From NCBI GenBank assembly GCA_964503955.1, contig CAZDCG010000003.1, positions 626 through 64,625 on the forward strand: a DNA stretch of 64,000 nucleotides. The letters are read 5' to 3'. The notes below the pieces were generated by a model that was given only the letters and a program-made list of their open reading frames with translations, was not told the DNA's origin and searched no databases. The stretch is from an uncultured Gammaproteobacteria bacterium (GTDB lineage Bacteria > Patescibacteriota > Patescibacteriia > VMEV01 > CAYQCH01). Positions 8,065 through 49,160 of the stretch are shown here, in pieces (position 1 is the first letter of the stretch; each line of letters begins with the position of its first letter). The translations under genes and the position numbers were made by a program.

Positions 8065-8097
8065 ACACATGCCCACACCCCGAACCAGGGGTGTTTT

Positions 8098-26043: not shown

Positions 26044-27366
26044 ATGTTAATGTGGTCATTGTTTAAGACCGTGATTATGATGAGCGCAGAAGAATCCAAT
26101 ACATTTGAACAGAGGGCGAATCATCAAGATGATATTGCTCTTATTTCAGAGCCTGGGCAGAAACCAGATCAGATAGGAGTTAATGATCTATTGGCCTCTG
26201 AGCTGAAGGGAGATCCTTCAGAGGAGAAGACGCAAGTCAACTCAACACCTCTTCCGGCACCTGACTTTGAAGATGACAGTCATTTCGCCGATCATGCATT
26301 GGCGGCCATTGAGCAGGTTAAAAAAGAGAAGCCGCTTCAGCAAAGAAACGAAGCATTTGAACAGCTCGCTCGTGAATCCGCGTCCGTATACGGAATTCCT
26401 GAGTCGCTGCACCAACATTTAACAAGGAGATTTGTTTTAGTCCGCCCTATGGCACAGGGAGGCATGGGAAAAGTATTCGAAGCCTATGACGCGAATCTGG
26501 ACATGCCCGTTGTGGTGAAATTTCTGAAAGTGCCTAGCTCTAACTGGCTTGAACGCTTCAAACGGGAAGCGAAGGCTACGGCGAAATTTGCTTCTCCATA
26601 TGTGGTTCGCATTTTCGATGCCGGCTGGTCTGAAGATGGCGCTTGGTATGCCATGGAAAAAGTTGAAGGCACTGATCTAAAAACCAGATTGGAGCAGGGG
26701 CAGATGCAAACTGCCGGAGACGCTGTAAAGGCCGCTTCTGATATTGCAAAAGGTCTGGTCCAGCTTGAAAAAGAAGGTATGGTGCATCGCGATCTTAAAC
26801 CGGCGAATATTTTGTATCGTGAAGAAACGGATACATATCAGCTCACGGATCTGGGATTGGTACATGTGAAGGAAAAGCCTAGTCTGGAACAGGGAGGCAT
26901 CGCTCTTGGCACGCCTTTCTACATGTCACCTGAATTGGCAAAGGGGCGTCATGATGAAGTAACTATCAAATCCGATGTCTGGGCTTTGGGGGTAACGCTT
27001 TATGAAATGCTTTCAGGTGAAATGCCTTTTAACGGAGAAAACAACATGAAAATACTGGAGCAGGTTCTCAGATCAACTCCTGCACGGCTTTCACATTTGT
27101 ATGATGTTCCAAAGGAACTAAGCGATCTCATCGCTCGCATGCTGGACAAAGACATAAGGAAGCGCCCCACACCGCAGGAAATCGTTGTTGAGCTGGCTCC
27201 ATTCCTGCAGCTGGAAACTCGCCTTCAGCAGAAAAAAGATATTTCGCGGGATGAAACCAATATCATCAACCCGGCGCATCAGCCAACCAAAGCCAAACCA
27301 TCGGACCGGGCCAAAAAAATTGATGAACGAGCCGATACGGTTACAAGAGTGAATATCAGCGAATAA
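26044..27366 (+). CDS. Hanks-type Ser/Thr protein kinase
   Basis: HRDLKPANILY, DLGLVH, GTPFYMSPE. Start may be an internal Met (26077). Confidence 0.75.
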   Translation: MLMWSLFKTVIMMSAEESNTFEQRANHQDDIALISEPGQKPDQIGVNDLLASELKGDPSEEKTQVNSTPLPAPDFEDDSHFADHALAAIEQVKKEKPLQQRNEAFEQLARESASVYGIPESLHQHLTRRFVLVRPMAQGGMGKVFEAYDANLDMPVVVKFLKVPSSNWLERFKREAKATAKFASPYVVRIFDAGWSEDGAWYAMEKVEGTDLKTRLEQGQMQTAGDAVKAASDIAKGLVQLEKEGMVHRDLKPANILYREETDTYQLTDLGLVHVKEKPSLEQGGIALGTPFYMSPELAKGRHDEVTIKSDVWALGVTLYEMLSGEMPFNGENNMKILEQVLRSTPARLSHLYDVPKELSDLIARMLDKDIRKRPTPQEIVVELAPFLQLETRLQQKKDISRDETNIINPAHQPTKAKPSDRAKKIDERADTVTRVNISE

Positions 27367-32999: not shown

Positions 33000-33226
33000 A
33001 GAAGTTGCTTTTCTTCCTTCCTTCCGTAACACACACGGTAACTTGCAACTCATTCGTAAGTTTGGTGGAAAGTTCGTAAATCTCGCGTTCAAGTTCAGGC
33101 TAGGGCTGAGTCTCGAACAGAAATTTAAACAAAACTACTCTTTAAGTGGCTGGAGTGCTCCTCCTTCCATTGCCAATTTCACATAAATTGCTATACTCGG
33201 CTCCACCCTCACAAAGGAGCGCATGG

Positions 33227-34321
33227 ATGCAGTCTTCGGGTAATCTGACGCTAACGTTTCGTGGTATCGAGTTCAAAGTACAGCTGTTCCCGACGCACGG
33301 CAATCAGCCGGTCGGGCGCAAGGATGTCCACACCGGCTGCGAGAAGCCGGTGGCCGTCCGGGATGCCTGCCCGTACTGTCTGAAGGGGTGCATCGAGGAG
33401 CGGGAAGAGCGCGAGGCCGAGACCGGTACGCCGGCCATGCCTCACCCCATTCCCGTCATGACCGGGAAGAGGGGTCGGGAGCGGATCGCCTGCGCCGACG
33501 CGCAGGACATGCCGCTCTTCAACCAGAAGGTGGTCGGTTCGCCGAGCGCGCCTCCCCTCAAGCAGACCTACTGCTCGGATCCTTCCTGCGGCAAGGTGAT
33601 CAAGGACAAGGCGGTTTCCGCCTGGGAGTGCGCGAACTGCAACAAGGTCGTCAACCGCGATGAAGTGGCCAAGGCCTACGTCGTTGAGGGCAGGATCTTC
33701 CTGTTCTCGCAGGAGGAGCAGGACGCTCTGGCCGCGCTCGAGGTCGGCCAGCGGCTGATGATCATCGAGTCGCTCGCACCCGACCAGGAGCCGTGGTTTG
33801 GCGAGCAGGGGGAAACCTACGCCGTCGTTCCGGAGAAGCGAGCGGAGTATCCGTTCGCGGTGTTCCGTAACGGAACGCTGATGCATGGCCATACGTGGCT
33901 CGCCGCCATGCGATTCAAGGAGGGGTACGAGCACGCGGTGCTGCTGCGCGCCAAGAGCGAGTACGGCTACATGCTCATGACGCTGCTCAAGCCGCGCCGC
34001 CACAGGCGCAACTTCGAAGTGCTTCTTCCCGAGATCGCGGAGCAAGACGCTCTGCTGATGGGGCAGGTCATGGCCACGGCCCGCCGTGTGGGCGCGCCTT
34101 CGGCGGAGTCCCACAAGCTCGAGTCGTCGCGGCAGGCGCATTTCGCCGAGCTCATCGCCGCCAAGACCGCCAGCAAGGCGTACGTCATTCCGCCGCCACA
34201 GGCGCTGGACGAGCAGACCGCGGCGGCCGCAGCTCAGCTGCTCGATTCGTTCGCCGAGTACGAGATGGCGAAGAAGAAGGGCAAGAAGAAGGCCGCCCGG
34301 AAGCAGGAAGCAGCTTCTTAG
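33227..34321 (+). CDS. Ku-like DNA end-binding protein (divergent, with Cys-rich insertion and Lys-rich tail)
   Basis: LTLTFRGIEFKVQLFPT, VAKAYVVEGRIFLFSQEEQDALAAL and YAVVPEK...HAVLLRAKSE resemble the bacterial Ku core. About 90 aa insert with a C-x2-C...C-x2-C cluster. C-terminal KKKGKKKAARK. AAAGGAG Shine-Dalgarno sequence. Confidence 0.5.
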   Translation: MQSSGNLTLTFRGIEFKVQLFPTHGNQPVGRKDVHTGCEKPVAVRDACPYCLKGCIEEREEREAETGTPAMPHPIPVMTGKRGRERIACADAQDMPLFNQKVVGSPSAPPLKQTYCSDPSCGKVIKDKAVSAWECANCNKVVNRDEVAKAYVVEGRIFLFSQEEQDALAALEVGQRLMIIESLAPDQEPWFGEQGETYAVVPEKRAEYPFAVFRNGTLMHGHTWLAAMRFKEGYEHAVLLRAKSEYGYMLMTLLKPRRHRRNFEVLLPEIAEQDALLMGQVMATARRVGAPSAESHKLESSRQAHFAELIAAKTASKAYVIPPPQALDEQTAAAAAQLLDSFAEYEMAKKKGKKKAARKQEAAS

Positions 34322-34431
34322 CACAATATCGCTTCATTCGTGTCCTCCCTTGCCTTGGCCGGCGGGGGAGGACACTTCCGTTTCAGGCCGGAAAATGGTA
34401 CGTTTCAGGAAAAGCGCGTCGCGCGATTGTT

Positions 34432-36120
34432 ATGCTTGTCAACCGTCCATCACTTCAGGAATTTGCTTTGCAGCAGAAACTGCTCACGGCCAAAGAACTT
34501 GAGCAGGTAAATGAGTTTGCGCGCAAAGAAAAGGTTTCCTTTGAAGAAGCCTTGCGCCTGCGCGCGAAATGGAAGGAGAAAGAAGTGTCTCAACTGCTCG
34601 CGGATTACTGGGAAGTCCCGCCTGTCAATCTTTCATCGCAAAAAATCCAACAGGAAACCCTGCAGCTGCTTCCCCCGCTGCTGGCCAGAACCCAGAAAGT
34701 CATTCCCTTTCGAAAAGATCAAAAGGGCATCCATGTCGCCATGGCAAATCCTTCCAATCTCGAGGTACGCCGCCAATTGGAAAAGAAATTCGATGAAAAC
34801 GTCCTGTTTTACTACACGCCCGCATCGGAAATGGAAGATGTGCTGCGCCTGTACGATACCACGCTCAGCCAGGCGCTTGATGAAATCATTGCCCAGGATA
34901 TCAGCAAGCTGCATAGCGTTGACGAAGATAATATCGAACTTCCGATTATCAGGATCACAGATGCGATCTTAAGTTACGCCGCCAGCAATAATGCATCGGA
35001 TATCCATATCGAGCCACTGGAAAACTATGTTCAGGTGCGCTACCGCATCGACGGCATGCTGCATGATGTCGTGCAATTGCCAAAACTGATCCTTGGGCCT
35101 GTCGTGACCCGCATCAAGATTCTGTCAAAACTCCGCATCGATGAACATTTTTCCGCGCAGGACGGACGATTTGATTATGTCTTTCAGGACAATAAAGTTG
35201 ATGCGCGCGTTTCCATTGTTCCAATCACGGAAGGGGAAAAGGTCGTCATCCGTTTGTTTACGGACAGGTCAAGGCGCCTGAGCCTGGAGGATCTTGGCAT
35301 GTCTGAAAAGGATTTGCGCACATTGAGAGCGGCGCTCAAAAAACCCTACGGGATGATTCTTTCCTCCGGTCCGACCGGATCCGGTAAAACAACAACCATG
35401 TATGCCATCATGCAAATGGTTAATAGCAGAGAAATCAATATTTCCACCATTGAAGATCCGGTGGAATACGATTTGCCAGGCGTAAATCAGATTCAGGTAA
35501 ATGAACGCACAAACCTGACATTTGCCCGCGGGTTGCGCTCCATTCTGCGCCAGGATCCGGACATTATCATGGTCGGAGAAATCCGCGATGAAGACGCCGC
35601 CGGCATTGCGGTGAATGCCGCGATGACCGGGCATCTTGTCTTGTCCACCTTGCATGCGAACAATGCGGCAACCACGATTCCGCGATTATTGGATTTGAAA
35701 ATAAAACCTTTTTTGCTGGCATCTTCTTTGAACTTAATCATTTCACAACGCCTTGTGCGCCGTATTTGCGCGCGCTGTAAAGTCACGTTAAGATTGGATA
35801 AGCAAACGCTGGCACAGCTTGATGCCCAGCTTCCTTCAACGGATTTGCAGGCGCATGTGCGGCACAAGAACCTGAAATTTTTCAAAGGAGACGGATGCAC
35901 GGTTTGCGCGCAAACAGGCTATCTTGGGCGTATCGGTATTTATGAAATGTACGAAGTAGACGAAGATATGCGCGAACTGATCATGGCCGGCGCGAGCGCG
36001 AAGGAAATAGAAGACGCGGCCGTGAAAAAAGGCATGACAACCATGCTTCAAGACGGATTGCAAAAAGTCGCCAATGGCGTAACGACCATTGAAGAAATCG
36101 TCCGGGTGATGTCCATCTAA
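34432..36120 (+). CDS. pilB: Type IV pilus assembly ATPase PilB/GspE family
   Basis: Walker A GPTGSGKTTT, Asp/His boxes and a C-terminal tetracysteine (CARC...CTVC). The ORF-track 5' extension from 33895 was rejected because it overlaps the Ku gene. Confidence 0.85.
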   Translation: MLVNRPSLQEFALQQKLLTAKELEQVNEFARKEKVSFEEALRLRAKWKEKEVSQLLADYWEVPPVNLSSQKIQQETLQLLPPLLARTQKVIPFRKDQKGIHVAMANPSNLEVRRQLEKKFDENVLFYYTPASEMEDVLRLYDTTLSQALDEIIAQDISKLHSVDEDNIELPIIRITDAILSYAASNNASDIHIEPLENYVQVRYRIDGMLHDVVQLPKLILGPVVTRIKILSKLRIDEHFSAQDGRFDYVFQDNKVDARVSIVPITEGEKVVIRLFTDRSRRLSLEDLGMSEKDLRTLRAALKKPYGMILSSGPTGSGKTTTMYAIMQMVNSREINISTIEDPVEYDLPGVNQIQVNERTNLTFARGLRSILRQDPDIIMVGEIRDEDAAGIAVNAAMTGHLVLSTLHANNAATTIPRLLDLKIKPFLLASSLNLIISQRLVRRICARCKVTLRLDKQTLAQLDAQLPSTDLQAHVRHKNLKFFKGDGCTVCAQTGYLGRIGIYEMYEVDEDMRELIMAGASAKEIEDAAVKKGMTTMLQDGLQKVANGVTTIEEIVRVMSI

Positions 36121-36209
36121 ATAGGTGCGAGTTTCTCGTTGACGGGTTGCGGGGAATACCCAAAGCTCGTAACGCATAACTCGTCATCCGCAACCCTAAA
36201 CCCAAACAA

Positions 36210-37427
36210 ATGCGTTACCGTTTTACCGCTCATACGAGCAAAGGCGAGCCGATCACGGCCAGCATCGAAGCCAGGAACAAGGAGGAAGCAACCGGCAGGC
36301 TGGTGAACAAAGGCTATGTGGTCGATTCGCTTCAAGCTGACTGGTTTCATACGATTTCACGGCTGAATATCGGGAGAGCCGGGGCTGTTTCTTTGCGCGA
36401 AAAGCTGATTTTCACACGCAACCTTGCGCTCATGATCCGCGCAGGTATTACGATTGATTCAGCGCTTTCCATTTTGTCCCAGCAGGCGGCCGGCCCGGTT
36501 TTACGGCGACTTCTGACCCGCATTCAGGAAGAAGTGGAGTCAGGCAATACCTTTTCTGAAGCCATGGCCGGCTATCCGCGCGTATTTGACGAATTGTATG
36601 TCAATATCATTGCCGCGTCGGAAAAATCCGGAACGCTGGCGGAAAGCCTTGAACATCTCGCCTGGCAGATCAAACGGCAGAATGATCTAAAATCAAAAAT
36701 CCAGGCGGCATTGTTTTATCCTCTCATCGTGATTGTTTCCACCATGGCCGTAGGGCTTGCCTTGTCTATTTTTGTTTTGCCAAAGATTACAAGCCTCTTT
36801 GTTACGTTTGATACCCAGCTTCCACTGACAACGCGTATTGTCGTCAAGTTGGCCGACCTGATGCAAAATAACAAATTGCTGGTCGTTGTGCTTCTCGCCG
36901 GCATGTTGGCGTTTTTCTACGCATTGGTAAAAATCAAATATTTGCGGCCGCTCTGGCATCGTTTGTTTTTGCGTTTGCCCGGCATTGGAAAAATCATGCG
37001 AGATTTTAACCTGGCCTTGTTTACAAGAACGCTTGGCACCTTGCTTGTCAGCGGTGTTCCCGTTAATCAGGCGCTTGAAATCACTTCAAAAACATTGAGA
37101 AATATCCGTTACCGCCAGGCGCTGGCGGAGATGGTGGTAAAGCAGCAATCAGGCACGAGCATGGGCTTGCTGCTCTCCGAACGGGAAGATCTTTTTCCTC
37201 CTATTGTGCATCGCATGATCCAGGTGGGGGAGGAAAGCGGAAACCTGGATGAATCGCTTTCTTTTCTGGCGGATTTTCATGAAGAAGAGCTTGATTATGC
37301 CACAAAGAATATTTCAACCATTATCGAGCCGGTTCTGCTGATTCTTGTCGGCATCATGGTCGCAGTTCTGGCGCTGGCTATTATCACTCCTATTTACCAG
37401 ATCACAGGCAGTTTCCAGCCGCGCTAA
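36210..37427 (+). CDS. pilC: Type IV pilus inner-membrane platform protein PilC/GspF family
   Basis: Two GspF repeats and three TM segments. Confidence 0.85.
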   Translation: MRYRFTAHTSKGEPITASIEARNKEEATGRLVNKGYVVDSLQADWFHTISRLNIGRAGAVSLREKLIFTRNLALMIRAGITIDSALSILSQQAAGPVLRRLLTRIQEEVESGNTFSEAMAGYPRVFDELYVNIIAASEKSGTLAESLEHLAWQIKRQNDLKSKIQAALFYPLIVIVSTMAVGLALSIFVLPKITSLFVTFDTQLPLTTRIVVKLADLMQNNKLLVVVLLAGMLAFFYALVKIKYLRPLWHRLFLRLPGIGKIMRDFNLALFTRTLGTLLVSGVPVNQALEITSKTLRNIRYRQALAEMVVKQQSGTSMGLLLSEREDLFPPIVHRMIQVGEESGNLDESLSFLADFHEEELDYATKNISTIIEPVLLILVGIMVAVLALAIITPIYQITGSFQPR

Positions 37428-37428
37428 T

Positions 37429-37884
37429 ATGGTAAAACGCTTGGGATTTACGATCATCGAGCTTATCGTGACCCTTGTCATCATGGGGTTGATCACTCTG
37501 GCGGTCTATCCTTTTCTGCAATCCGCCATCGGCCGCTCGGAATTGAAACGCTCTACCTGGGAAGTGGCCGATACCATCCGCCGCGCGCAAGTGCAATCCA
37601 TGGCCGGGCTGATGAATGATGTCTGGGGAGTGCGGATTGAAACAAACGGGTACACGCTTTTTAAAGGAAGCGTCTTTAATCCCGCTGAACCGGAAAATAT
37701 TTCGTTTGTGTTCTCAAGCCAGATCACGGTTTCATCGTTGAATCTCAACGGCGGTGTGTCTGATCTTCTCTTTGCTTCAACGGGAAGAACCGATGCGTAC
37801 GGAACAATTACTTTGCAAGATGCCAGTACCACGCTCACGTCAACCATTACCGTGACCGAGGCGGGAAAAATCACCCATGACTAA
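37429..37884 (+). CDS. Prepilin-type N-terminal cleavage/methylation domain pseudopilin
   Basis: MVKRLGFTIIELIVTLVIMGLI matches the class III signal G|FTIIE. Confidence 0.6.
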   Translation: MVKRLGFTIIELIVTLVIMGLITLAVYPFLQSAIGRSELKRSTWEVADTIRRAQVQSMAGLMNDVWGVRIETNGYTLFKGSVFNPAEPENISFVFSSQITVSSLNLNGGVSDLLFASTGRTDAYGTITLQDASTTLTSTITVTEAGKITHD

Positions 37885-40800
37885 ACGAATCACTCAATGC
37901 GGACAGGCTTTAGTCGAACTGCTCATCGCGGTCGGCTTATTTGCCTTGTTCGGTTTGGCCATCGCTGCTTTGGGATTTGAAGGGTTGATCGACGCGCAAG
38001 GCGGGGAACAGCGGTCACGCGCTTCCTTTTTGGCACAGGAAGGCATTGAAGCGGCTAAAAGCATCCGAGACCGCGGATGGCAGCATTTGGCCGTCGGCGC
38101 GCATGGGTTGGCCACCTCCAATGGCTATTGGGAATTTTCAGGAAGTTCTGAGACAATTGACGATCTCTATACCCGCACGATCCAGGTCAGCGAGGTGAAC
38201 CGTGACGAGGGAGAAATTGTTCTGGTTGGGGGAGAACTTGATCCGCGCATGAGGCTGGTTGTTTCCACTGTGGCGTGGAATCCTGTATTCGGTCCGGAGC
38301 AAACATTAGAAATCCAAACATATCTGAGCGACTGGAATGTGTATGACTGGTTTGAAACAACGGACGATGAGTTTGATGAGGGGGAGGCCGTCGATACGGT
38401 TGTGGCTGGTTCAGGCGATGAGGCCCTTGTGGAGCTTGCAGCAGGAAGCGGAGGAGGGGGAGGAAGCGGAGAAGCAGAATGGGTTGAAGGCGGAGGACCG
38501 TATCTGACCGATACCACGGATACTGATTTTGCGCAGGGAACATTGTCTCAGACGGTGGTATCCGGAACCGGGGTAAATGGAAGAGTCCTGCTTGACACCG
38601 AAGAAAAATGGGATTTGTTCAACTTTGCTTTTGGCACTATTGACATGGAATATGCTGCCGAGCACTGGGCGGCGGGAGCAGGCGGTGCGCTATTTGAATG
38701 GACCGGGTCTGCCTGGGTACAGGCTGATTCCCCGGTCACGGAGGATTTGTACTATGTGCATGAGGTGGACGACGATGAAGTCTATGTTGTGGGCGAAAAT
38801 GGCACGGCCATCCGTTATAACGGACAGATATGGGAAAACATTGAAACACCCACGTCGGAACATCTCAATTCCGTCGCCATGTTTTCAACGGATGATGGAA
38901 TTGCAGTGGGGGACGGGGGAACGATTCTGCGCTGGAATGGCAGCGTCTGGACGGTATTGCCATCGCCTACCACAAGAGATTTAAATGACATTACATTATT
39001 CAGCAATTCCTTTGGTGTCATTGTCGGCGATAATGGAACAATTCTTCACTGGGATGGCACCGCCTGGAATAGCGTCACATCTCCAACGCCGCAGACTCTG
39101 TACGGAGTGGAATTGTTTTCCGCTATTGATGGTTTTGCCGTTGGCAATTCAGGGACCATTCTGCGCTGGAACGGCACGAACTGGCTGACCTTTTCTTCGC
39201 CGATTAACAGACGGCTTGATTCGGTATCATTCAGCTCGCCTACACGCGGATTTACCGTGGGGGACGGGGGAGTGAATTTGCTGTGGGATGGCAATGCCTG
39301 GACAGAATTTTTATCGCCAACCAATAAGTTTCTGCAGAGCGTATTTATGATTTCCGCTTCCAATGGCTGGGCGGTCGGCCAAGACGGAACTGTCATCCGT
39401 TGGAACGGAACGCAATGGATTCCATATATTCAGGATACAGGGGAAAATTACACGGCGGTTGATCTGGTCTCCGCGACCGACGCATTTGCCGTTGGGCAAT
39501 CCCTTGGGAAAGGCATCATCAGGCATTGGGATGGGGATACCTGGACATCTCAGAGTTCTCCAGTGAATAAGGCGCTTTACGGCGTCGATATGGTCGCATC
39601 AAATGACGTTTGGGCAGTCGGAAATAACGCGGCCATAATCTTCTATGACGGAAATTCCTGGTCTGAAGTCAACTCGCCGGTAAATTCCTCCTTTTATGAC
39701 GTGTCCATGGTCAGCGCGATTGACGGGTTTATTGTTGGCAGCGGCAAAGCAATTCTGCGCTGGAACGGTTCTGTCTGGTCGTCAGTCAGTTCGCCAGGAT
39801 CGAATGTGAATTACAATTCGATCGACATGCTTTCCGCAATCGATGGGTTTATCGCCGGAGAAAAAAGCACCATTCTCAGATGGAATGGCACTCAGTGGAC
39901 GCTGATGTCAGCACCCGCCACCAATAAAAATCTGAACGGGGTAGACGCTCTGTCGGCGAATGAAGCCTGGATCGTGGGGGATGCGGGATTGATCTGGCGA
40001 TGGGATGGGAGTGCGTGGTCATCCGTTACCTCGCCCACGGCCAAAGATTTGCTTGATGTATCATTTGTCTCTTCTTCCCTGGGGTACGCTTCAGGAGAGG
40101 ACGGAACATTGTTGAAATGGGATGGACTGTCATGGTCAATTGTCAATTCAGGAACGAGCGAAGATTTGCCTGGGCTTTCCATTCTTGATGCGAATACCGG
40201 CTGGGGAGTAGCAAATGGAGGTACCTTCATCCGATTAGGGCTTTTCTATAAAACGGCGGGAACCTTTGTCTCCCGCGTCTTTGACAGCGGCGATCCGTCC
40301 ACCTTTTGGAGCTTTATCCGCTGGTCGGAAAATTCCTATTCGGTCGCCTCGCTGAGCATTGCAACAAGATCTGGCAATACGCCTGTACCGGATGGATCCT
40401 GGTCGGCCTGGAGTTCGGAGCTGTCCGATCACCTTGGCGATCAAATCCCATCGCCAGACGGGCGATACCTGCAATATCGAGCAACATTTTCCACAAGCGC
40501 GCTTTACATTTCCGCTGAGCTGCTCGATGTAACGATCACCTATAATGATCCGGCTATTCCTTACGATTTGCATGATATTGACATGGTTTCTGCGAGCGAA
40601 GGCTGGGCGGTTGGCGATAATGCGACCATGTTGTATCTGGACGGCGATACATGGGAAGACGTGAGCGTGCCTTCTACTGCGCATTTATACGGCATCGATA
40701 TGGTCAGTGCATCGGAAGGCTGGGCCGTTGGCGCATCAGGCAATCTGCTTCGCTATGCCGGCAATGTTTGGACATCGATTGGCTCGCCAACAACCGAGCA

Positions 40801-41677
40801 TCTGTACGATGTCTTCATGCTTTCCTCATCCCAGGGCTGGGCTGTAGGAGCCGGGGGTACCATTTTGGAATATGACGGCGTTTCCTGGTCTGCTATCCCT
40901 TCGCCGACGGCAGATACCTTGTACGGTGTTTATCTCGTCGACGCGAATGAAGGCTGGGCCGTAGGAGCCGGCGGTGTTATCATCTTGTGGAATGGCACAT
41001 CCTGGTCAACCGCTTCATCTCCTGTTTTGGAAGATTTATACGCGATTTCCATGGTGAGCTCCGATGAAGGCTGGGCAGTTGGAGGTTCGGGCAAAATTCT
41101 TCGTTACCTCGGGGCCGGCTGGACCGAATTTGCCGACGCGGGATCAAATGCGCTGCGGGACATAGACATGGAATCATCAACGCAAGGGCGGGTTGTCATG
41201 GATGGAGGAAGAATTCTGCGCTGGGATACCGTCACCTGGGTGCTTGATCCATCGCCGGTGACAACTGATCTGAACGCGGTTGCTTTAGCATCTGAAGATG
41301 AAGGCTGGATCATGGGTGATGGCGGAGTTATTCTTCATTTCACCATTGTCGGCGGTGTCGGGGACGGTGCGTATGTTTCGGAAGGAGAATTTCTCTCGCA
41401 TGTATTTGATTCGGATAATGCAAACACGCAATGGGAAAGGATTTACTGGCGCGAGATTCTGCCTGAAGGCACACAGGCTACGCTTGCGGTGAGAGTGGGA
41501 GATACGGCGGTACCGGACGGCACCTGGAGTGCTTTTACATCCGAATTTGATAATCCTGTTTCCATCAATTTGATCAACCTGCAGGGTAGATACGCTCAAT
41601 ACCGCATTACGCTCAGCACGACAAATACGGATTTCACTCCCCAGGTGGAGGATGTTCTGTTAACCTATAAGCCATGA
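37877..41677 (+). CDS. Giant pilin-like protein: prepilin-like N-terminus fused to ~25 beta-propeller blade repeats
   Basis: N-terminal QALVELLIAVGLFAL helix. A ~45-aa blade repeat (ILRWNGSVWT..SPT..L..V.....G.AVGD.GT) recurs throughout 1266 aa. DNA-level tandem repeats across ~40560-41100. Confidence 0.6.
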   Translation: MTKRITQCGQALVELLIAVGLFALFGLAIAALGFEGLIDAQGGEQRSRASFLAQEGIEAAKSIRDRGWQHLAVGAHGLATSNGYWEFSGSSETIDDLYTRTIQVSEVNRDEGEIVLVGGELDPRMRLVVSTVAWNPVFGPEQTLEIQTYLSDWNVYDWFETTDDEFDEGEAVDTVVAGSGDEALVELAAGSGGGGGSGEAEWVEGGGPYLTDTTDTDFAQGTLSQTVVSGTGVNGRVLLDTEEKWDLFNFAFGTIDMEYAAEHWAAGAGGALFEWTGSAWVQADSPVTEDLYYVHEVDDDEVYVVGENGTAIRYNGQIWENIETPTSEHLNSVAMFSTDDGIAVGDGGTILRWNGSVWTVLPSPTTRDLNDITLFSNSFGVIVGDNGTILHWDGTAWNSVTSPTPQTLYGVELFSAIDGFAVGNSGTILRWNGTNWLTFSSPINRRLDSVSFSSPTRGFTVGDGGVNLLWDGNAWTEFLSPTNKFLQSVFMISASNGWAVGQDGTVIRWNGTQWIPYIQDTGENYTAVDLVSATDAFAVGQSLGKGIIRHWDGDTWTSQSSPVNKALYGVDMVASNDVWAVGNNAAIIFYDGNSWSEVNSPVNSSFYDVSMVSAIDGFIVGSGKAILRWNGSVWSSVSSPGSNVNYNSIDMLSAIDGFIAGEKSTILRWNGTQWTLMSAPATNKNLNGVDALSANEAWIVGDAGLIWRWDGSAWSSVTSPTAKDLLDVSFVSSSLGYASGEDGTLLKWDGLSWSIVNSGTSEDLPGLSILDANTGWGVANGGTFIRLGLFYKTAGTFVSRVFDSGDPSTFWSFIRWSENSYSVASLSIATRSGNTPVPDGSWSAWSSELSDHLGDQIPSPDGRYLQYRATFSTSALYISAELLDVTITYNDPAIPYDLHDIDMVSASEGWAVGDNATMLYLDGDTWEDVSVPSTAHLYGIDMVSASEGWAVGASGNLLRYAGNVWTSIGSPTTEHLYDVFMLSSSQGWAVGAGGTILEYDGVSWSAIPSPTADTLYGVYLVDANEGWAVGAGGVIILWNGTSWSTASSPVLEDLYAISMVSSDEGWAVGGSGKILRYLGAGWTEFADAGSNALRDIDMESSTQGRVVMDGGRILRWDTVTWVLDPSPVTTDLNAVALASEDEGWIMGDGGVILHFTIVGGVGDGAYVSEGEFLSHVFDSDNANTQWERIYWREILPEGTQATLAVRVGDTAVPDGTWSAFTSEFDNPVSINLINLQGRYAQYRITLSTTNTDFTPQVEDVLLTYKP

Positions 41678-42201
41678 CCGCATCACGCGCGCAATCCGGA
41701 TTTTCCCTGATCGAGTTGATCATTTACGTCGCACTGGTAAGTATCATCGTGACGGGATTTGTCAGTTTCGCGATTGATTTAGCAGCTTCATCGCAAAAAG
41801 CAAAGGTGCAGCTGCAGGTGCAGCAAAACGCGCGCTTTGCCATGGAAACGATCTTGCGGGAAATCAGGCAAGCGCAAGGTTTAGACGAGCTCAATTCCAC
41901 CTTTGGCGCGCATCCCGGCGCCATAACGCTTGAACAGGCTGATCCTCTGAACGATCCGACTGTCATAGACGTGGAAAATGGTATACTGAGAATCATGCGA
42001 GGTGCTCAAGGTACGGAGGAAATCACCGACGAATCGCTTGAGATTACAGATCTTGTCTTTGAAAATCTCAGCACCCCCGGCCGCGTGCAAGTTCTCCGTG
42101 TCGCATTGACCTTGCGGCATGCAAATCCGGATCAGTCTGAAATTTTTGAGGCTGACTCCACGCTTTATGGAACAGCTGTTATCCGTACTCAGCAAGAATA
42201 A
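41674..42201 (+). CDS. Prepilin-type pseudopilin
   Basis: GFSLIELIIYVALVSIIV. Confidence 0.6.
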   Translation: MTASRAQSGFSLIELIIYVALVSIIVTGFVSFAIDLAASSQKAKVQLQVQQNARFAMETILREIRQAQGLDELNSTFGAHPGAITLEQADPLNDPTVIDVENGILRIMRGAQGTEEITDESLEITDLVFENLSTPGRVQVLRVALTLRHANPDQSEIFEADSTLYGTAVIRTQQE

Positions 42202-42586
42202 GCCCGCGGGGTATCTCGGCGTCGTTTCGGTATTGATTATCGCGATCATCTCGCTTGCCGTCGTGATCGGCGTTACGATTTTAGGCAATAATGAATTGTT
42301 CTACGGCTACCAGTTTGATCAGTCAAACCAGGCCCTGCAGCTGGCGGATGCTTGCGCGGAGGAAGCGTATCTTCGTTTGAAGTTGGATGCCTCATACACC
42401 GGAGGAGCGCTTTCCTTTACAAACGGGGAATGCGAAGTGTCGGTCATGGGTATTGGCACCAGCCGGACGCTTACCGCTGAGGCGGTTGTGGGCGCGGCAA
42501 CAAGGACGCTTGAATTGGAGGTTGATTTACTCGCTAATGCAGACGCGACGGCTGAGGGCATTGATCTTACGCAGTGGAAAGAATAA
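42167..42586 (+). CDS. Pilus-associated membrane-anchored protein (minor-pilin/PilN-like), start uncertain
   Basis: TM LGVVSVLIIAIISLAVVIGV. Overlaps the upstream gene by 35 nt if the ATG at 42167 is used. Confidence 0.3.
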   Translation: MEQLLSVLSKNKPAGYLGVVSVLIIAIISLAVVIGVTILGNNELFYGYQFDQSNQALQLADACAEEAYLRLKLDASYTGGALSFTNGECEVSVMGIGTSRTLTAEAVVGAATRTLELEVDLLANADATAEGIDLTQWKE

Positions 42587-43710
42587 GTATGAAATGGATT
42601 CATGTATTTTCGAAACGAAAGGGATATATCGGTCTGCATATCACATCCGATATGCTTACGGCTGTCCAGCTGATCGGCAAACCATCCGGCAATGAATATG
42701 CCATTGCGGGGTGGTCCAAAGTTCCGCTTCACCGCGACACCATTGTTTCAGGCAAGCTCGCCGACAGCGATGCCTTGGTAGAAGCGTTGCGCCGGTTCAG
42801 AGAAAAACCGGATTTCGGATCCTTTACAAATGCGCCGGTGATTTTTTCTTTTCCCGAACACCAGTGTTTCCATACGACGTTTCAGATGAAAAAGGCTGAA
42901 GTCAAATCGCCAAGAGCGTCCGCGCTTGAAAAAACAACCTTGTCAGTGCCGTTCGCCGCAGATGATCTCTTCTGGGATTGGACCATTGTCCGGCAGAATC
43001 AATCGTTCAGTTCTTTTTACTCGATCGCTATTCCCCGCGATGTATTGATGCCGTACCGTGCCGCGTTTGCAAAAGCGCAAATCGATGTGAAAGTTGTCGA
43101 GCCCGAAATACTTTCTTCAACAAGATTCTATTTCCGTCGTTCCGTTTTCCCCGAACCTGTTTTATACGCGACCATTGGCCGGGAAGAAGTGGCTGTTGCC
43201 ACGCTCGATGAAAACGGCATTCACCAATCATCCGTTATTGAAGATGAAGGGATCGACCACTGGGCCGGCAGGATTGCCGCTGATCTGGGCGTGAAGCAAG
43301 AAGCCGCGGAAAAAGCATTGTTCAAAGCGGGGGTGCGGCCGCTCAGCCACCCTAAAGCCAAGCCGATTCAGAAATGCCTGTCTGCGGCGCAAAAGCGCAT
43401 CTTGCAGGAATTTGTGGAACACAAAGAATTTTATGATCAGCTTGCTCATGAGCAGAAAAAACAAATCACGAGAATTCTGTTGAACGGAGAAGGTGTCTTT
43501 ATTCCTGAATTTATCCAGTCTTTGCAAAAGCAATCGGGAATGCATCTGGTTCAGCTCACGCCCTGGGCAAAGTACAAACCTGAGCTGACGCTGGTGCAGG
43601 AAGGGGTAATGTCTCAGGCATTCGGCGCGGCAATAAGAGGCATTTATCGCGAGAATGCGTCAAAAGGCATTAATGTGCTTCGTTCCGCTCTGCCGATTGA
43701 ACCGGTCTAG
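42574..43710 (+). CDS. PilM-like actin-fold pilus assembly protein
   Basis: N-terminal IGLHITSDMLTAVQL and C-terminal ILLNGEGVFIPEFIQSLQKQSGMHL resemble PilM/FtsA. Confidence 0.5.
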   Translation: MERISMKWIHVFSKRKGYIGLHITSDMLTAVQLIGKPSGNEYAIAGWSKVPLHRDTIVSGKLADSDALVEALRRFREKPDFGSFTNAPVIFSFPEHQCFHTTFQMKKAEVKSPRASALEKTTLSVPFAADDLFWDWTIVRQNQSFSSFYSIAIPRDVLMPYRAAFAKAQIDVKVVEPEILSSTRFYFRRSVFPEPVLYATIGREEVAVATLDENGIHQSSVIEDEGIDHWAGRIAADLGVKQEAAEKALFKAGVRPLSHPKAKPIQKCLSAAQKRILQEFVEHKEFYDQLAHEQKKQITRILLNGEGVFIPEFIQSLQKQSGMHLVQLTPWAKYKPELTLVQEGVMSQAFGAAIRGIYRENASKGINVLRSALPIEPV

Positions 43711-43767
43711 TCCACAGGTTGGGTTGCCGTTCATTTCGTGATTTTGGTATACTTAGGCACAAGGATT

Positions 43768-44241
43768 ATGCAAAATAGCCGAAAAGGATTTACGCTCATT
43801 GAACTGCTGGTTGTCATCGTCATTATTGGCTTGCTTGCATCCATTGTCTTTGTCGCCATTGATCCTGCGCAGCGATTTGCCGATGTGCGCGACGCGAGGA
43901 GAAGGGCGGAAACGGTTTCGCTGTTGAATGCGATTCTGAAATATCAGATTGACCATGACGGCGACTTGCCGGCCGGGATCGATTCCGATCCGGGTACGGC
44001 GCAGGTGCTGGGGACCGCACCTTCCGGCTGCGACGCCTCATGCACGGCCATTGCGACCGAAGAAGCTTGTCTTGATGTAACCGCGGCTCTGGTTGATGAA
44101 TACCTTGCTTCTATTCCAATGGATCCAGATACAGGCACGGTCACAAATACGGATTATTATGTGAATCGTTCCGCGACCGGGCGCATCACGATAGGAGCTT
44201 GTGATCCTGAAAGCGCGCCGCAAATCAGCATTTCCCGATAA
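43768..44241 (+). CDS. Type IV major pilin paralog 1
   Basis: KGFTLIELLVVIVIIGLLA prepilin signal. Conserved N-terminal ~80 aa, variable Cys-containing C-terminus. Confidence 0.8.
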   Translation: MQNSRKGFTLIELLVVIVIIGLLASIVFVAIDPAQRFADVRDARRRAETVSLLNAILKYQIDHDGDLPAGIDSDPGTAQVLGTAPSGCDASCTAIATEEACLDVTAALVDEYLASIPMDPDTGTVTNTDYYVNRSATGRITIGACDPESAPQISISR

Positions 44242-44264
44242 CTAAACGTCCTAATCTTATTCCT

Positions 44265-44756
44265 ATGCATGACAAAAAACAAAAAGGGTTCACCCTCATT
44301 GAACTTCTGGTGGTGATCGTCATCATCGGTCTTTTGGCCGCAATCATTTTCGTGGCGGTTGACCCGGCTCAGCGATTCGGTGACGCGCGAGACGCGCGGC
44401 GCCGCGCGGAAGTGGTCTCTATTTTGAATGCGGTATTGAAGTACCAGGTCGATCATGACGGTGACCTGCCGGCTGATATTGATGCGACACCTGGAACCTA
44501 TCAGATACTTGGAATAGATGCTTCGGGCTGCAGTGCGGCTTGTGGGGGCTTTCTTGCCGCCGCAGTGGAAGATGAGTGTCTTGATCTTACCGATGATCTT
44601 GTGACGACGGGAGGGTATCTGGCTTCCATTCCAATGGATCCGGATACCGGTGACGCGAATAATACGCGATATTATCTTAACCAGACAACAAACGGTCGTA
44701 TCACCGTTGGAGCGTGCGATCCTGAAAACGCTACGGCAATCAGTGTATCGCGTTAA
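44265..44756 (+). CDS. Type IV major pilin paralog 2
   Basis: Same N-terminal 80 aa as paralogs 1 and 3. Divergent C-terminal half. Confidence 0.8.
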   Translation: MHDKKQKGFTLIELLVVIVIIGLLAAIIFVAVDPAQRFGDARDARRRAEVVSILNAVLKYQVDHDGDLPADIDATPGTYQILGIDASGCSAACGGFLAAAVEDECLDLTDDLVTTGGYLASIPMDPDTGDANNTRYYLNQTTNGRITVGACDPENATAISVSR

Positions 44757-44768
44757 TCTTAGATCTCT

Positions 44769-45239
44769 ATGTACAAATCTGAACAAAAAGGTTTCACTCT
44801 CATCGAATTATTGGTTGTGATCGTCATTATCGGGCTTTTAGCTGCGATCATTTTCGTAGCGGTAGATCCGGCAAAACGTTTCGGAGATGCACGTGATGCA
44901 CGCCGCCGCGCGGAAGTGGTCTCTATTTTGAATGCGGTATTGAAACATCAGGTAGACCATGACGGCGATTTGCCGGCGGGAATCGATGCTACAGTGAGGC
45001 AGCTTGGTACCGGTTCTGCATGCGATACCTGTCCAAAAGGAGGTGCTACCCCAGCTACATGTTTGAATTTGGCAGGTGATTTAGTTGATGAATATCTCGC
45101 TTCGATTCCGATGGACCCTGACGCAGCTTTTGGTTCTGCAGCAGCAACTGGTTATTATATCCAACGTACCGCCAATGGACGCCTGACCGTCGGTTCGTGC
45201 AATACTGATAATGCAACCGCGATCAGCGTGTCTCGATAA
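44769..45239 (+). CDS. Type IV major pilin paralog 3
   Basis: Same N-terminal 80 aa. Divergent C-terminal half. Confidence 0.8.
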   Translation: MYKSEQKGFTLIELLVVIVIIGLLAAIIFVAVDPAKRFGDARDARRRAEVVSILNAVLKHQVDHDGDLPAGIDATVRQLGTGSACDTCPKGGATPATCLNLAGDLVDEYLASIPMDPDAAFGSAAATGYYIQRTANGRLTVGSCNTDNATAISVSR

Positions 45240-45265
45240 GACGCCAAACCACTTACAAACAAAAG

Positions 45266-45293
45266 AGCCTCCTGACCATCAGGGGGCTTTTTG
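45266..45293 (+). terminator. Rho-independent terminator after the pilin array
   Basis: CCTCCTGA-CCA-TCAGGGGG followed by T5. Confidence 0.75.
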
Positions 45294-45386
45294 TTCTTTG
45301 TTAACGTGTTGATGGGTTGAGATTTGTGGGTGTTTATATCGAGAACCCCCTTTGTATGTTTTCTGATGCTTGATAGTAGATTCAAT

Positions 45387-48986: not shown

Positions 48987-49063
48987 TGGTGGACCTGAGG
49001 GGACTTGAACCCCTGGCCTCTTCCATGCCATGGAAGCGCTCTAGCCAACTGAGCTACAGGCCC
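48987..49063 (-). tRNA. tRNA-Ala (anticodon GGC), CCA encoded
   Basis: Manual fold: GGGCCTG acceptor with G3:U70, anticodon arm CTTCC-ATGGCAT-GGAAG, T-arm GGGGTTCAAGTCCCC, ACCA 3' end. Confidence 0.85.
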
Positions 49064-49088
49064 ATGGTGCGGGGCTTGCACAACTCAG

Positions 49089-49160
49089 TGGGGCTAGATG
49101 GATTCGAACCATCGCCTTCCATGTTATAAGCATGGTGCTCTACCGCTGAGCTATAGCCCC
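49089..49160 (-). tRNA. tRNA-Ile with UAU anticodon (no encoded CCA)
   Basis: Manual fold: acceptor GGGGCTA/TAGCCCC, anticodon arm CCATG-CTTATAA-CATGG (U33, UAU, A37), T-arm GATGGTTCGAATCCATC, A73. Confidence 0.75.

Follow-up and report, generated by a model that had tools for sequence, protein, structure and literature searches.

Gene content and boundaries of the pilus operon

The 64,000-nucleotide window (i.e., the whole stretch of DNA analyzed here) contains an operon on the forward strand, spanning positions 34432 to 45239, whose genes are tightly coupled, with neighbors overlapping or abutting. Strong terminator-like hairpins, also on the forward strand, flank it on both sides: the first (34340 to 34375; 15-bp stem with 10 GC pairs) ends the upstream Ku-like gene and forms the 5' boundary, and the second (45262 to 45292; 14-bp stem followed by a T-run) forms the 3' boundary. 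The operon encodes PilB, PilC, four minor-pilin-type proteins, including a giant of 1,266 amino acids (aa), PilM, and three paralogous major pilins; Pfam matches (T2SSE plus MshEN, T2SSF, N_methyl, and PilM_2) bore out the gene order and identities proposed in an earlier, sequence-only reading of this DNA. We consider this locus likely to be a type IV pilus (T4P) operon of an ultrasmall bacterium of the Patescibacteria (CPR), with the giant as a modular minor pilin.

The first gene (34432 to 36120) encodes a PilB-type assembly ATPase of 562 aa, with an MshEN N-domain (Pfam E = 7.9e-12) and a T2SSE domain (E = 1.3e-128), agreeing in length with its 563-aa ortholog in a relative locus (L012). 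It is followed by the gene for a 405-aa PilC-type platform protein (36210 to 37427) with two T2SSF domains (E = 9.3e-60). Behind the minor-pilin genes lie a gene for a PilM-like actin-fold assembly protein of 378 aa (42574 to 43710; PilM_2, E = 2.4e-8; NCBIfam pilM, E = 4.6e-11, under its cutoff) and those for the three major-type pilins. Paralog 1 (43768 to 44241; N_methyl, E = 1.2e-9) has the N-terminus ...RKG/FTLIELLVVIVIIG (here and below, a slash denotes the predicted cleavage site), and paralogs 2 (44265 to 44756; E = 1.9e-11) and 3 (44769 to 45239; E = 1.1e-9) are 69% and 62% identical to it, respectively. An alternative start of paralog 1 is possible at a GTG at position 43738.

Three small genes surround that of the giant. 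Minor pilin 1 (37432 to 37884; 150 aa; N-terminus MVKRLG/FTIIE) matches N_methyl (E = 7.9e-6) and is weakly GspH/ComGD-like (NCBIfam GspH, E = 5.7e-7, under its cutoff); its gene overlaps that of the giant by 8 nucleotides (nt). Minor pilin 3 (41674 to 42201; 175 aa; N-terminus ...QSG/FSLIE), the start of which overlaps the stop codon of the giant (ATGA), also matches N_methyl (E = 2.7e-6) and is weakly GspJ/PilW/HpsC-like (NCBIfam HpsC, E = 3e-7, far under the 200-bit cutoff). The third product (42167 to 42586; 139 aa; N-terminus ...KPAG/YLGVVSVLIIAI) had been taken for a membrane protein; its N-terminus is indeed hydrophobic, but from its position in relatives it is better read as a putative fourth minor pilin. 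While it lacks a Glu at +5 and matched no family in profile searches, including those against NCBIfam, its ortholog in L012 occupies the equivalent position and, at 28% overall identity, retains the AG and the hydrophobic segment invariantly, and in all relatives the slot is filled by a gene encoding 134 to 153 aa. The protein is a candidate for the tip-most (GspK/PilX-like) subunit.

The term "competence-like," previously attached to the locus, had to be dropped: NCBIfam ComG scores are far under their cutoffs, the locus has PilM and a PilB of the MshEN type, and ComEA, ComEC, and DprA are all absent from the window, as are PilT, PilN, and PilO. The observation that the window encodes no prepilin peptidase (PilD), on the other hand, stands. 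A tblastn search of the window with Pseudomonas aeruginosa PilD yielded a best E of 0.93, the G-x-G-D-x-K motif is absent from all six frames, and Peptidase_A24 had no Pfam match among the approximately 50 window open reading frames (ORFs) scanned. A pilus locus devoid of pilD has a precedent in Saccharibacteria strain TM7x, in which just one of several T4P loci contains the gene (PMC11623550).

Architecture of the 1,266-aa protein

The gene of the giant (37877 to 41677, including the stop codon) is an intact ORF that starts with a pilin module (aa 1 to 155; 37877 to 38341), consisting of the leader MTKRITQCG with predicted cleavage after G9, an alpha1 helix (aa 8 to 66), and an antiparallel beta-sheet (aa 74 to 151). 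With Gly at -1 and Glu (E14) at +5, the N-terminus MTKRITQCG/QALVELLIAVGLFALF (MTKRITQCG/QALVE at the cleavage site) fits a class III (prepilin) signal. In a 41-sequence alignment of the N-domain family, both residues are kept in at least 90% of members, and 31 of the 41 match Pfam N_methyl (best E, 2.2e-7), with the full-length relatives P0128 and P0134 passing its cutoff. Aligned by hhalign, the family and the window's own major pilins match in register, with G/xxxxE aligned (92.3% probability; E = 5.5e-7). When the N-domain profile was run against PDB sequences, the top match and 6 of the 18 matches listed were alpha1N segments of genuine pilins (two chains of geopilin [E = 0.0099 and 0.026], PilA [E = 0.042], MshA, TcpA, and the CFA/III pilin), the remainder being unrelated proteins with similar E values. 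Finally, AlphaFold2 (AF2) predicts a pilin-like "lollipop" topology for the module, with pLDDT values of >90 over aa 11 to 150. The pilin-like helix recognized in the sequence-only reading is thereby corroborated, and the N-terminus does not look like an ordinary Sec signal peptide devoid of pilin homology. Gene order and a weak match confined to alpha1 hint at a PilV/I-like N-domain.

A protein with such an N-terminus might instead stay in the membrane, its uncleaved helix acting as a signal anchor, and, coexpressed with the pilus, function either as an adhesin on the cell body or as a priming or stator (PilY1-like/assembly) component that is never carried outward. The window copy itself has no N_methyl match at E ≤ 0.01, its single NCBIfam match being PilV (E = 0.083); residue +1 is Gln, where Phe or Met is usual; and the window lacks PilD. 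Likewise counting against a pilin, the large minor pilins of TM7x are not predicted to be PilD substrates (PMC11623550). However, a plain membrane anchor would need neither G-1 nor E+5, both of which are conserved across a very diverse family, most relatives do match N_methyl, the family profile aligns in register with pilins of this very locus, and the gene is always found among minor pilins. We therefore regard the membrane-anchored alternative as unlikely.

Beyond the pilin module, an acidic and Gly-rich linker with a small beta element (aa 156 to 260; 38342 to 38656) includes a 9-nt repeat (38443 to 38475) that was detected by Tandem Repeats Finder (TRF) and encodes GSGGGGGSGE. AF2 pLDDT drops to 50 to 63 over aa 151 to 215, and beta elements of moderate confidence are modeled at aa 201 to 255. 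The rest of the protein is dominated by blades of the Ycf48/PSII_BNR type (PF14870; E = 2e-34; score, 119.6 bits; cutoff, 27), in line with the suggestion to search among Ycf48/BNR-like families. Their period is 117 nt, or 39 aa (rather than the approximately 45 aa estimated before), and their consensus is xxxSxxxGWAVGxxGxILRWxGxxWxxxxSPxxxxLxxV. A blade hidden Markov model (HMM) found 21 of them, not the approximately 25 originally counted, in blocks of 14 (aa 261 to 787; 38657 to 40237) and 7 (aa 902 to 1155), each closing with a half-blade. This arrangement translates into exactly three seven-bladed, Ycf48-like propellers, where "three or more" had been proposed: propellers 1 and 2 in the first block and propeller 3 (aa 898 to 1155; 40568 to 41341) in the second.

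Two all-beta modules of about 110 aa each, overlooked in the sequence-only reading, follow the two blade blocks. Module A (aa 789 to 897; 40241 to 40567) is a family-specific domain, with beta strands in the model and no Pfam or PDB sequence match, and is homologous to module B (aa 1156 to 1266; 41342 to 41674; 38% identity). The latter is the hallmark of the giant's family: it strictly cooccurs with the pilin N-domain and forms the C-terminus of 68 of the 79 family proteins carrying it. In the AF2 model of the entire cargo (mean pLDDT, 89.8), all 21 repeats are predicted to form four-stranded blades, with pLDDT values of about 90 to 97 in propellers 1 and 2, so that the repeats do model as propeller blades. 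Foldseek aligned Ycf48 chain 5ojr_D, matched by propeller 3, over 286 columns (TMt, 0.71; root mean square deviation [rmsd], 3.5 Å; 19% identity), and its best overall matches were double seven-bladed propellers (E about 1e-15), among them several that bind glycans, namely, the heparin sensor BT4663, GH74 xyloglucanases, and PorZ.

Divergence of the blades, variation of the cargo, and proposed role

The blades between 40.56 and 41.10 kb had been described as near identical at the DNA level and as a product of recent tandem amplification, neither of which was confirmed. In-register whole blades in that interval share 43 to 56% of their nucleotides and 33 to 54% of their residues; among 11 gap-free, in-register 39-aa blades compared, the highest whole-blade identity is 58% at the nucleotide level. 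Similarity peaks in local stretches (71% over 51 nt and 75% over 76 nt), the longest exact words common to blades measure 14 to 17 nt, and TRF detected no blade array. The blades are, judging by sequence, old and diverged.

Should the array nevertheless stem from recent, unstable amplification, or from misassembly of a repetitive gene, its copy number would be accidental. Consistent with such an origin are the regular 117-nt spacing, the peptide DMVSASEGWAVG, which occurs in two consecutive blades (surrounding 51 nt, 71% identical), and the variable number of propellers among relatives. Yet the divergence between blades is too large for collapse, misassembly, or ongoing slippage, and four-propeller syntenic relatives are just 43 to 45% identical overall to the giant. 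Moreover, blade counts in the family (7 to 9, 11 to 15, 18 to 22, and 28) group near multiples of seven, which suggests whole propellers, not single blades, as the unit. We thus deem an accidental copy number highly improbable.

The family of the N-terminal pilin module comprises 2,890 clusters, with the match always at the target's N-terminus, targets of 136 to 2,116 aa, and named relatives that all belong to the CPR. Its cargo varies among an LVIVD propeller, a Laminin_G_3/ConA-like lectin, a GH115_C-like domain, and Ycf48 blades, the last forming one to four propellers (about 7, 14, 21, or 28 blades). Whatever the cargo, the homolog of the giant in relatives occupies a fixed slot of the minor-pilin cassette.

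We propose that the pilin module (the first ~155 residues) would be cleaved after Gly9 by a prepilin peptidase presumably encoded elsewhere in the genome and that its alpha1 helix would then insert into the core of the filament, where the three small minor pilins from the surrounding genes would join it. The order of the cassette seems to resemble H-I-J-K, with the giant in the I/PilV-like position. Because minor pilins prime pilus assembly, their complex comes to lie at the tip, as is established for other T4P, and the complex containing the giant would likewise end up at the pilus tip. There, the flexible acidic/Gly-rich linker would display the double propeller, the first beta module, the third propeller, and the second beta module as a ligand-binding head. 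Its ligand would most likely be a glycan or glycoprotein polymer on the surface of the CPR bacterium's host cell, so that the pilus would serve to recognize the host and attach to it. On the basis of the prepilin features, the modeled propellers, and the fixed minor-pilin slot, the pilus-displayed multipropeller adhesin or binding module of the sequence-only reading is probably correct, and the giant is most likely an adhesin displayed at the pilus tip.

The propellers could also make up an enzyme, i.e., a GH74-like head cleaving glycans of the host envelope, or a DNA or nutrient receptor on a competence-type uptake pilus. The Foldseek matches to GH74 xyloglucanases 2cn3, 6mgj, and 5jwz (E about 1e-15 to 1e-14) would fit the former; as to the latter, CPR bacteria are auxotrophic, and T4P have been proposed to take up DNA for them. 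Predicted peptidase modules do occur on some modular pilins (PMC8179133). Then again, the GH74 matches, at 10 to 14% identity, are no better than those to the nonenzymatic double propellers of Aip1, Gemin5, and BT4663, and Pfam places the blades in the Ycf48 family, not in a glycosidase or BNR family. The competence findings for the window (see above) do not favor an uptake pilus, and T4P mutants of TM7x have no competence defect, according to the discussion of that paper (PMC11623550). An enzyme or receptor thus appears slightly less probable still than a membrane anchor, and we retain the adhesin as the preferred reading.

Relation to known systems

The giant's nearest precedents are PilB and PilC, modular pilins of Streptococcus sanguinis, and the propeller-bearing PilX2 of TM7x. 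Like the giant, PilX2, from T4P-2 of Nanosynbacter lyticus TM7x, is a minor pilin of a CPR bacterium that starts with a pilin-like helix, carries a seven-bladed beta-propeller in its C-terminal part, and exceeds the other pilins of its locus in size. Its signal is noncanonical, PilD comes from another locus, and its deletion halves host binding while filaments remain (PMC11623550). It carries one propeller of RCC1 repeats, whereas the giant has three of the Ycf48/PSII_BNR type and two extra beta modules, and it comes with experimental data, whereas the giant is known here from sequence and predicted structure. Compared by description, PilX2 serves here as the functional model for the giant.

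Modular pilins display adhesive modules on T4P, and those of S. sanguinis (PilB with a vWA module; PilC with Ig-like and ConA-lectin modules) are likewise built from a small, class III signal-bearing pilin module that a linker connects to bulky binding modules (PMC8179133, PMC9934059). They are also predicted to sit at the tip, in complex with other minor pilins. The cargo of the giant differs in being a triple propeller framed by a conserved extra C-terminal beta module.

PilY1/PilC of diderm T4aP (Pseudomonas, Neisseria, and Myxococcus) resembles the giant in its size, its seven-bladed beta-propeller, and its place in a minor-pilin operon, and it is a tip adhesin presented by core minor pilins, as proposed here. 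Unlike the giant, it is not a pilin, lacks a class III signal, and depends on the minor-pilin complex to hold it; its propeller is of another family (IPR008707), and the PilY1 family had no Pfam match at the locus. With the photosystem II assembly factor Ycf48/Hcf136 (PF14870; PDB 5ojr), the giant shares the blade sequence family and the seven-bladed fold. Ycf48, however, is a single soluble or lipid-anchored, D1-binding propeller of cyanobacteria and chloroplasts, while the giant fuses three copies to a pilin in a nonphotosynthetic CPR bacterium; the two therefore have their fold in common but not their function. Seven-bladed propellers in tandem, with a beta-sandwich behind them, also occur in the hybrid two-component sensor domain of BT4663 (4a2l/4a2m), GH74 xyloglucanases, and PorZ of the type IX secretion system, which bind glycan chains between or on their propellers. 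At 10 to 14% identity, an rmsd of 12 to 15 Å (i.e., with propellers oriented differently), and no common sequence family, these matches suggest a class of ligand and nothing beyond that.

A 2021 InterPro survey of modular pilins (>1,200 proteins in 264 architectures) includes LVIVD-repeat proteins from the CPR as well as one IPR012902-IPR028203 entry, in which we take IPR028203 to be the Ycf48/Hcf136-like domain. The giant, at 1,266 aa (relatives, up to 2,122 aa), exceeds the 860-aa "most extreme case" of that survey (PMC8179133). The class, in other words, has already been described, and the giant is a large new addition to the modular pilins rather than a new kind of system.

The pilus operon and its minor-pilin genes

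The giant protein, a 1266-aa propeller-bearing protein of the minor-pilin type (37877-41677, plus strand), is co-encoded in one operon with PilB, PilC, PilM and five or six further pilin genes. Ten plus-strand genes, each overlapping or nearly abutting the next, are flanked by strong terminator-like hairpins (34340-34375 and 45262-45292). In order, the genes encode a PilB-type, MshEN-containing ATPase (34432-36120; Pfam T2SSE, E=1.3e-128), the platform protein PilC (36210-37427; Pfam T2SSF, E=9.3e-60), a 150-aa prepilin (37432-37884; Pfam), the giant protein, a 175-aa prepilin (41674-42201; Pfam), a 139-aa protein with a single hydrophobic N-terminal segment (42167-42586), PilM (42574-43710; Pfam) and three pilin paralogs, 62-69% identical to one another, that have the canonical N-terminus KG|FTLIELLVV (43768-45239). 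The start of the giant gene overlaps the upstream stop codon by 8 nt, and its own stop shares the sequence ATGA with the next start. Both the Pfam identities and the gene order agree with the gene list drawn up in the sequence-only reading of this region.

The same reading had called the locus competence-like, a label that we did not retain. Scores for ComGC, ComGD, ComGE and ComGF amounted to 13 to 24 bits against NCBIfam cutoffs of 49 to 80, PilM is present and neither ComEA nor ComEC is encoded within the window; on these scores and this gene content, we rejected a competence (ComG) pilus. The observation that the window lacks the prepilin peptidase PilD did hold, both among the ORFs scanned and in all six frames. 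This absence is not unusual, given that Nanosynbacter lyticus TM7x (Saccharibacteria) encodes PilD in just one of several type IV pilus loci (PMC11623550). Likewise, no PilT and no separate PilN or PilO gene was found within the window.

Core minor pilin genes of type IV filaments follow a characteristic order, as in gspH-I-J-K of type II secretion systems and in the fimU-pilV-W-X operon. The first of the four prepilin-type genes here, encoding the 150-aa prepilin, shows weak similarity to GspH/ComGD, the giant protein to PilV (restricted to alpha1, E=0.083) and the third, encoding the 175-aa prepilin, to proteins of the HpsC/PilW/GspJ type (all NCBIfam). The fourth (42167-42586) matched no family in Pfam or NCBIfam; its N-terminal pattern and conserved position make it a putative pilin-like protein. 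It is without Glu+5, and a missing Glu+5 is typical of the tip-most subunit, GspK. From the gene order, the weak per-gene similarities and the Glu+5-less fourth gene, we infer that the four products would form a tip complex that primes assembly and remains at the pilus tip. The pilin module of the giant protein would then be anchored in the filament core, with a linker allowing some 1,000 residues of cargo (the propellers and all-beta modules that follow it) to project outward.

Several further observations concern the operon and its surroundings. Across the three tandem pilin paralogs, mean DNA column identity is 79%, and paralogs 2 and 3 are identical to each other over some 40 nt (around 44395-44435 and 44899-44939), possibly owing to local gene conversion. 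PilM measures 378 aa in the window, compared with 875 aa and 622 aa in the loci of two relatives (L012, 15294-17921, and L016, 6392-8260), where the longer forms may be fusions to PilN/O-like parts. Upstream of pilB lies a gene that is only weakly Ku-like (33146-34321, plus strand; Pfam Ku, E=4e-4, below cutoff), the product of which has a Lys-rich tail and is considerably extended at its N-terminus; the gene is covered almost entirely by an antisense ORF of 357 aa (33251-34324, minus strand), probably an artefact of GC composition. A DUF2207 membrane protein (20267-21961) is also found upstream of the pilus operon in another relative, L015. Elsewhere in the window, a type III restriction-modification-like block (2053-8592) forms a low-GC island (40-42%, versus 50-57% around it) and was probably acquired horizontally; in it, a DNA methylase (2053-4233) is followed by a DUF3800 protein (4230-5012) and then by a ResIII helicase plus endonuclease (5123-7762), adjoined by an IS200-like transposase fragment (8098-8592). 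With two sigma factors of the ECF type and two Ser/Thr protein kinases (10755-11315; 17203-17703, minus strand; 23542-25584; 26044-27366), the window is rich in regulators for a small-genome organism. Finally, a tRNA-Ile with anticodon TAT (49088-49160, minus strand) adjoins a tRNA-Ala(GGC) (48987-49063, minus strand); UAU-anticodon tRNA-Ile is uncommon in bacteria, where AUA is usually read by a lysidine-modified CAU tRNA.

The pilin module of the giant protein

The N-terminus, MTKRITQCG|QALVELLIAVGLFALFGLAIAALGF, combines a short basic leader with Gly at position -1, Gln at +1 and Glu at +5, and contains a hydrophobic stretch of 23 residues (aa 12-34). In an alignment of 41 sequences of the N-domain, G9 (-1) and E14 (+5, within QALVE) are each kept in at least 90% of the members, and at the predicted cleavage site G-Q-S-L-[IV]-E is common in the family, beside G-F-S-[IL]-[IV]-E. 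While the window copy itself has no match to N_methyl (PF07963) at E<=0.01, 31 of the 41 family members do, and two full-length relatives (P0128 and P0134) even exceed the curated cutoff of 21.2 bits. Additionally, hhalign aligned the N-domain family to the major pilins of the window with a probability of 92.3% (E=5.5e-7) and with G|xxxxE in register. Several database sources already label full-length relatives as 'prepilin-type N-terminal cleavage/methylation domain-containing protein' or 'pseudopilin PulG'.

Comparisons with solved structures were less telling. When the N-domain profile was searched against PDB sequences, the top match and six of the 18 listed matches were pilin alpha1N segments (two geopilin chains, PilA, MshA, TcpA and CFA/III pilin), all of them marginal, and the remainder were unrelated proteins with similar E-values; phmmer with a single N-domain sequence returned nothing relevant from the same collection. 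An AlphaFold2 (AF2) model of aa 1-215, for which 24 homologs were used, predicts one continuous helix (aa 8-66) followed by an antiparallel sheet (aa 74-151), with pLDDT above 90 for aa 11-150 and disorder beyond, i.e., the 'lollipop' topology of a pilin as far as the model goes. Foldseek matches of this model in the PDB were spurious (best E 0.046), perhaps because alpha1N is usually missing from solved pilins.

The sequence-only reading had regarded the N-terminus as that of a prepilin and had named an ordinary Sec signal peptide, lacking pilin homology, as the alternative. A possible AIA|A site (aa 28-31) would suit such a signal; the conserved Gly/Glu pair and the predicted, uninterrupted helix of 59 residues make it unlikely. 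The prepilin reading is supported by the conserved G-1 and E+5 and by the homology detected with hhalign and N_methyl. The class III signal predicted from the sequence is thus well supported, and with most features of the superfamily present, we consider the giant protein to be a member of the pilins.

The propeller array and the all-beta modules

An acidic, Gly-rich linker separates the pilin module from the cargo. Its GSGGGGGSGE segment is encoded by a 9-mer repeat (38443-38475), the sole DNA tandem repeat that Tandem Repeats Finder (TRF) reported in the giant gene. Beyond it, a blade HMM identified 21 units of 117 nt, or 39 aa, each, in blocks of 14 (aa 261-787) and 7 (aa 902-1155), with the consensus xxxSxxxGWAVGxxGxILRWxGxxWxxxxSPxxxxLxxV. 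The earlier estimate, about 25 blades of about 45 aa, was therefore too high in both respects. Each block is closed by a half-blade, as expected for 'velcro' closure, and an AF2 model of aa 201-1266 (mean pLDDT 89.8, with the blades at approximately 90 to 97) has four strands per blade and the same 14 + 7 blades. Since 14 and 7 blades with terminal half-blades correspond to whole propellers, the model predicts exactly three seven-bladed propellers, laid out as two propellers, a module, one propeller and a second module.

In support of the propeller assignment already proposed from the sequence, five stretches matched Pfam PF14870 (PSII_BNR/Ycf48; E=2e-34, 119.6 bits against a cutoff of 27), and Foldseek superimposed the cargo on Ycf48 (5ojr_D) over 286 columns (TMt 0.71, rmsd 3.5 A). 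The best overall Foldseek matches were to two seven-bladed propellers, as in the BT4663 sensor domain, Aip1, GH74 xyloglucanases, Gemin5 and PorZ; the three-propeller protein DDB1 was also among them. We place the giant protein in the Ycf48 fold family and claim nothing more than this. A role in photosystem II assembly (D1 binding) is implausible, considering that no photosynthesis genes were detected among the window ORFs scanned and that the named relatives of the valyl-tRNA synthetase (ValRS) of the window, at 53-57% identity, are all Patescibacteria (CPR): Buchananbacteria, Magasanikbacteria, Parcubacteria, Peregrinibacteria, Uhrbacteria, Moranbacteria and 'Patescibacteria group'. The ValRS itself is 100% identical to a public protein (P0263) encoded on a 162-kb NCBI contig. 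A Logan contig (L014, SRR11843830) begins at the DHH gene, just past the two tRNA genes and downstream of the pilus operon.

Blades at 40.56-41.10 kb had been described as nearly identical at the DNA level and taken as a sign of recent tandem amplification. In-register whole blades in this interval share only 43-56% of their nucleotides and 33-54% of their residues, and whole-blade nucleotide identity peaks at 58% among the 11 gap-free blades compared in register. Local ungapped stretches reach at best 71% (over 51 nt) and 75% (over 76 nt), the longest exact words in common measure 14 to 17 nt, and TRF reported no blade array in the gene. On this low DNA identity, we rejected a recent amplification; taken together with the short exact words and the missing TRF array, the low identity indicates that the blade array is old, and the same divergence argues against an assembly artefact. 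Save for this amplification and the competence label, the overall interpretation reached in the sequence-only reading was largely right.

Each block of blades is followed by an all-beta module of about 110 aa (module A, 40241-40567, aa 789-897; module B, 41342-41674, aa 1156-1266), the two being 38% identical. No match to this module was found in Pfam, NCBIfam or PDB sequences, and a database search with its profile yielded 12 short fragments among the 368 candidates that passed the word filter. It is nevertheless present in 80 of the 89 family members of at least 500 aa, and it occupies the very C-terminus in 68 of 79 proteins carrying it. Among the 120 best propeller homologs, 31 contain both the module and the pilin N-domain and 89 contain neither; not one has either of them alone. 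The module may be of the same kind as the unannotated 'beta-jelly-roll-like' domain of PilX1 from TM7x (PMC11623550).

A family with variable cargo and its relation to known systems

A search with aa 1-215 against 1.84 billion representative proteins, clustered at 50% identity, returned 2,890 clusters at E<=1e-3, of which 1,157 reach E<=1e-10, with the match always located at the extreme N-terminus of the target. Named full-length relatives are proteins from Patescibacteria metagenome-assembled genomes (MAGs), and one N-domain relative stems from a Parcubacteria bacterium. An exact look-up in the protein collection found no identical copy. When the entire giant protein was used as a query against GTDB genomes, propeller-only proteins alone were recovered, from Chloroflexia, Myxococcales and others.

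The operon context recurs in these relatives. One contig (that of P0002) encodes PilC, a 157-aa prepilin, a 2122-aa giant protein, a 181-aa prepilin, a 134-aa protein and two pilins, followed, as in the window, by DHH, ValRS and TyrRS. Locus L017, with a 2116-aa relative (P0001), has the same order and then the same SAM_HAT_C gene, on the opposite strand. In L012 (NCBI Patescibacteria), PilT, a kinase, two response regulators, PilB, PilC and a 175-aa protein precede a giant protein of 1396 aa (P0005), which is followed by a 181-aa prepilin, a 145-aa protein, PilM and a pilin. The cargo itself differs. In L015, PilB, PilC and a 154-aa prepilin are followed by a 1676-aa protein with an LVIVD propeller and ConA-like lectin domains, and then by 174-aa and 135-aa proteins, PilM and a pilin, while L016 encodes a 1438-aa family member with four Laminin_G_3 domains. 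The same operon slot is, in other words, used by family members with LVIVD/ConA-like, Laminin_G_3 or Ycf48 cargo. Ycf48-blade counts across the family lie near multiples of seven (7-9, 11-15, 18-22 and 28), and stand-alone forms of 136 to 300 aa exist as well.

We tentatively consider, as a possibility that we hold to be rather doubtful, that the giant protein is one allele-like form of a 'cassette' minor-pilin family, so far from CPR-named sources only. With the same reserve, the conserved pilin N-module and the conserved C-terminal beta module might frame exchangeable receptor-binding cargo at one fixed slot, and this cargo could, just as speculatively, comprise between one and four propellers of the Ycf48 type, or else LVIVD propellers, lectins of the ConA type or other modules. 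If this were true, host range in episymbiotic ultrasmall bacteria would be determined mainly by this family, in a manner comparable to that of phage receptor-binding proteins; reach or avidity would depend on propeller number, and the C-terminal module would serve a specific purpose, for instance capping the tip complex or docking back onto it.

CPR bacteria make up a large, mostly uncultured share of bacterial diversity and live attached to other microbes. We know of no CPR attachment organelle tested genetically so far other than type IV pili, in one saccharibacterium only. The locus described here provides a clean and complete example from another CPR lineage, with a predicted triple-propeller head on a pilus. 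Because very different binding modules are found on one pilin scaffold and in one operon slot, the family supplies concrete candidates for determinants of host specificity, for which metagenomes can be mined.

Among the closest known systems is PilX2 of TM7x, a propeller-bearing minor pilin that is required for efficient host binding and not for filament formation, in an organism for which host cell-wall glycans have been implicated in binding (PMC11623550). Like the giant protein, PilX2 is encoded in a CPR type IV pilus locus and combines a pilin-like N-terminus with a C-terminal seven-bladed propeller. Compared by description, PilX2 differs in having a single propeller of the RCC1 type (PMC11623550), whereas the giant protein has Ycf48-type blades and no Pfam match to RCC1; by these features, it falls outside the RCC1/PilX2 family. 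On the strength of this host-binding role, the glycan-binding double-propeller analogues and the lectin domains in sibling proteins, the most likely function of the giant protein would, by analogy, be host recognition and attachment via a surface polymer.

In diderms, PilY1 is an analogous propeller adhesin that is not itself a pilin. It is held by minor pilins, whereas the giant protein bears a pilin module of its own; additionally, Pfam detected no PilY1-type propeller domain (IPR008707/Neisseria_PilC) in the giant protein, the blades of which score as PSII_BNR. On the basis of the missing IPR008707 match and the pilin module, we rejected membership in the PilY1/PilC family.

A more general comparison is with pilins carrying additional domains, for which we take IPR028203 to be the Ycf48/Hcf136-like domain. 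Raynaud et al. (2021) defined 'modular pilins' as a set of more than 1,200 proteins with 264 architectures; LVIVD-repeat proteins of CPR bacteria are among them, the architecture IPR012902-IPR028203 is listed once, and the 'most extreme case' named has 860 aa (PMC8179133). The modular pilins PilB and PilC of S. sanguinis are experimentally proven adhesins (PMC8179133, PMC9934059). By analogy, the giant protein would work like these known adhesins, and it is an unusually large further case of the modular pilins already described, extending a known principle to a larger, multi-propeller form while leaving the picture of pilus biology unchanged. The pattern of the family, with a pilin module, a C-terminal module and swappable cargo at a fixed slot, goes beyond what we found described.
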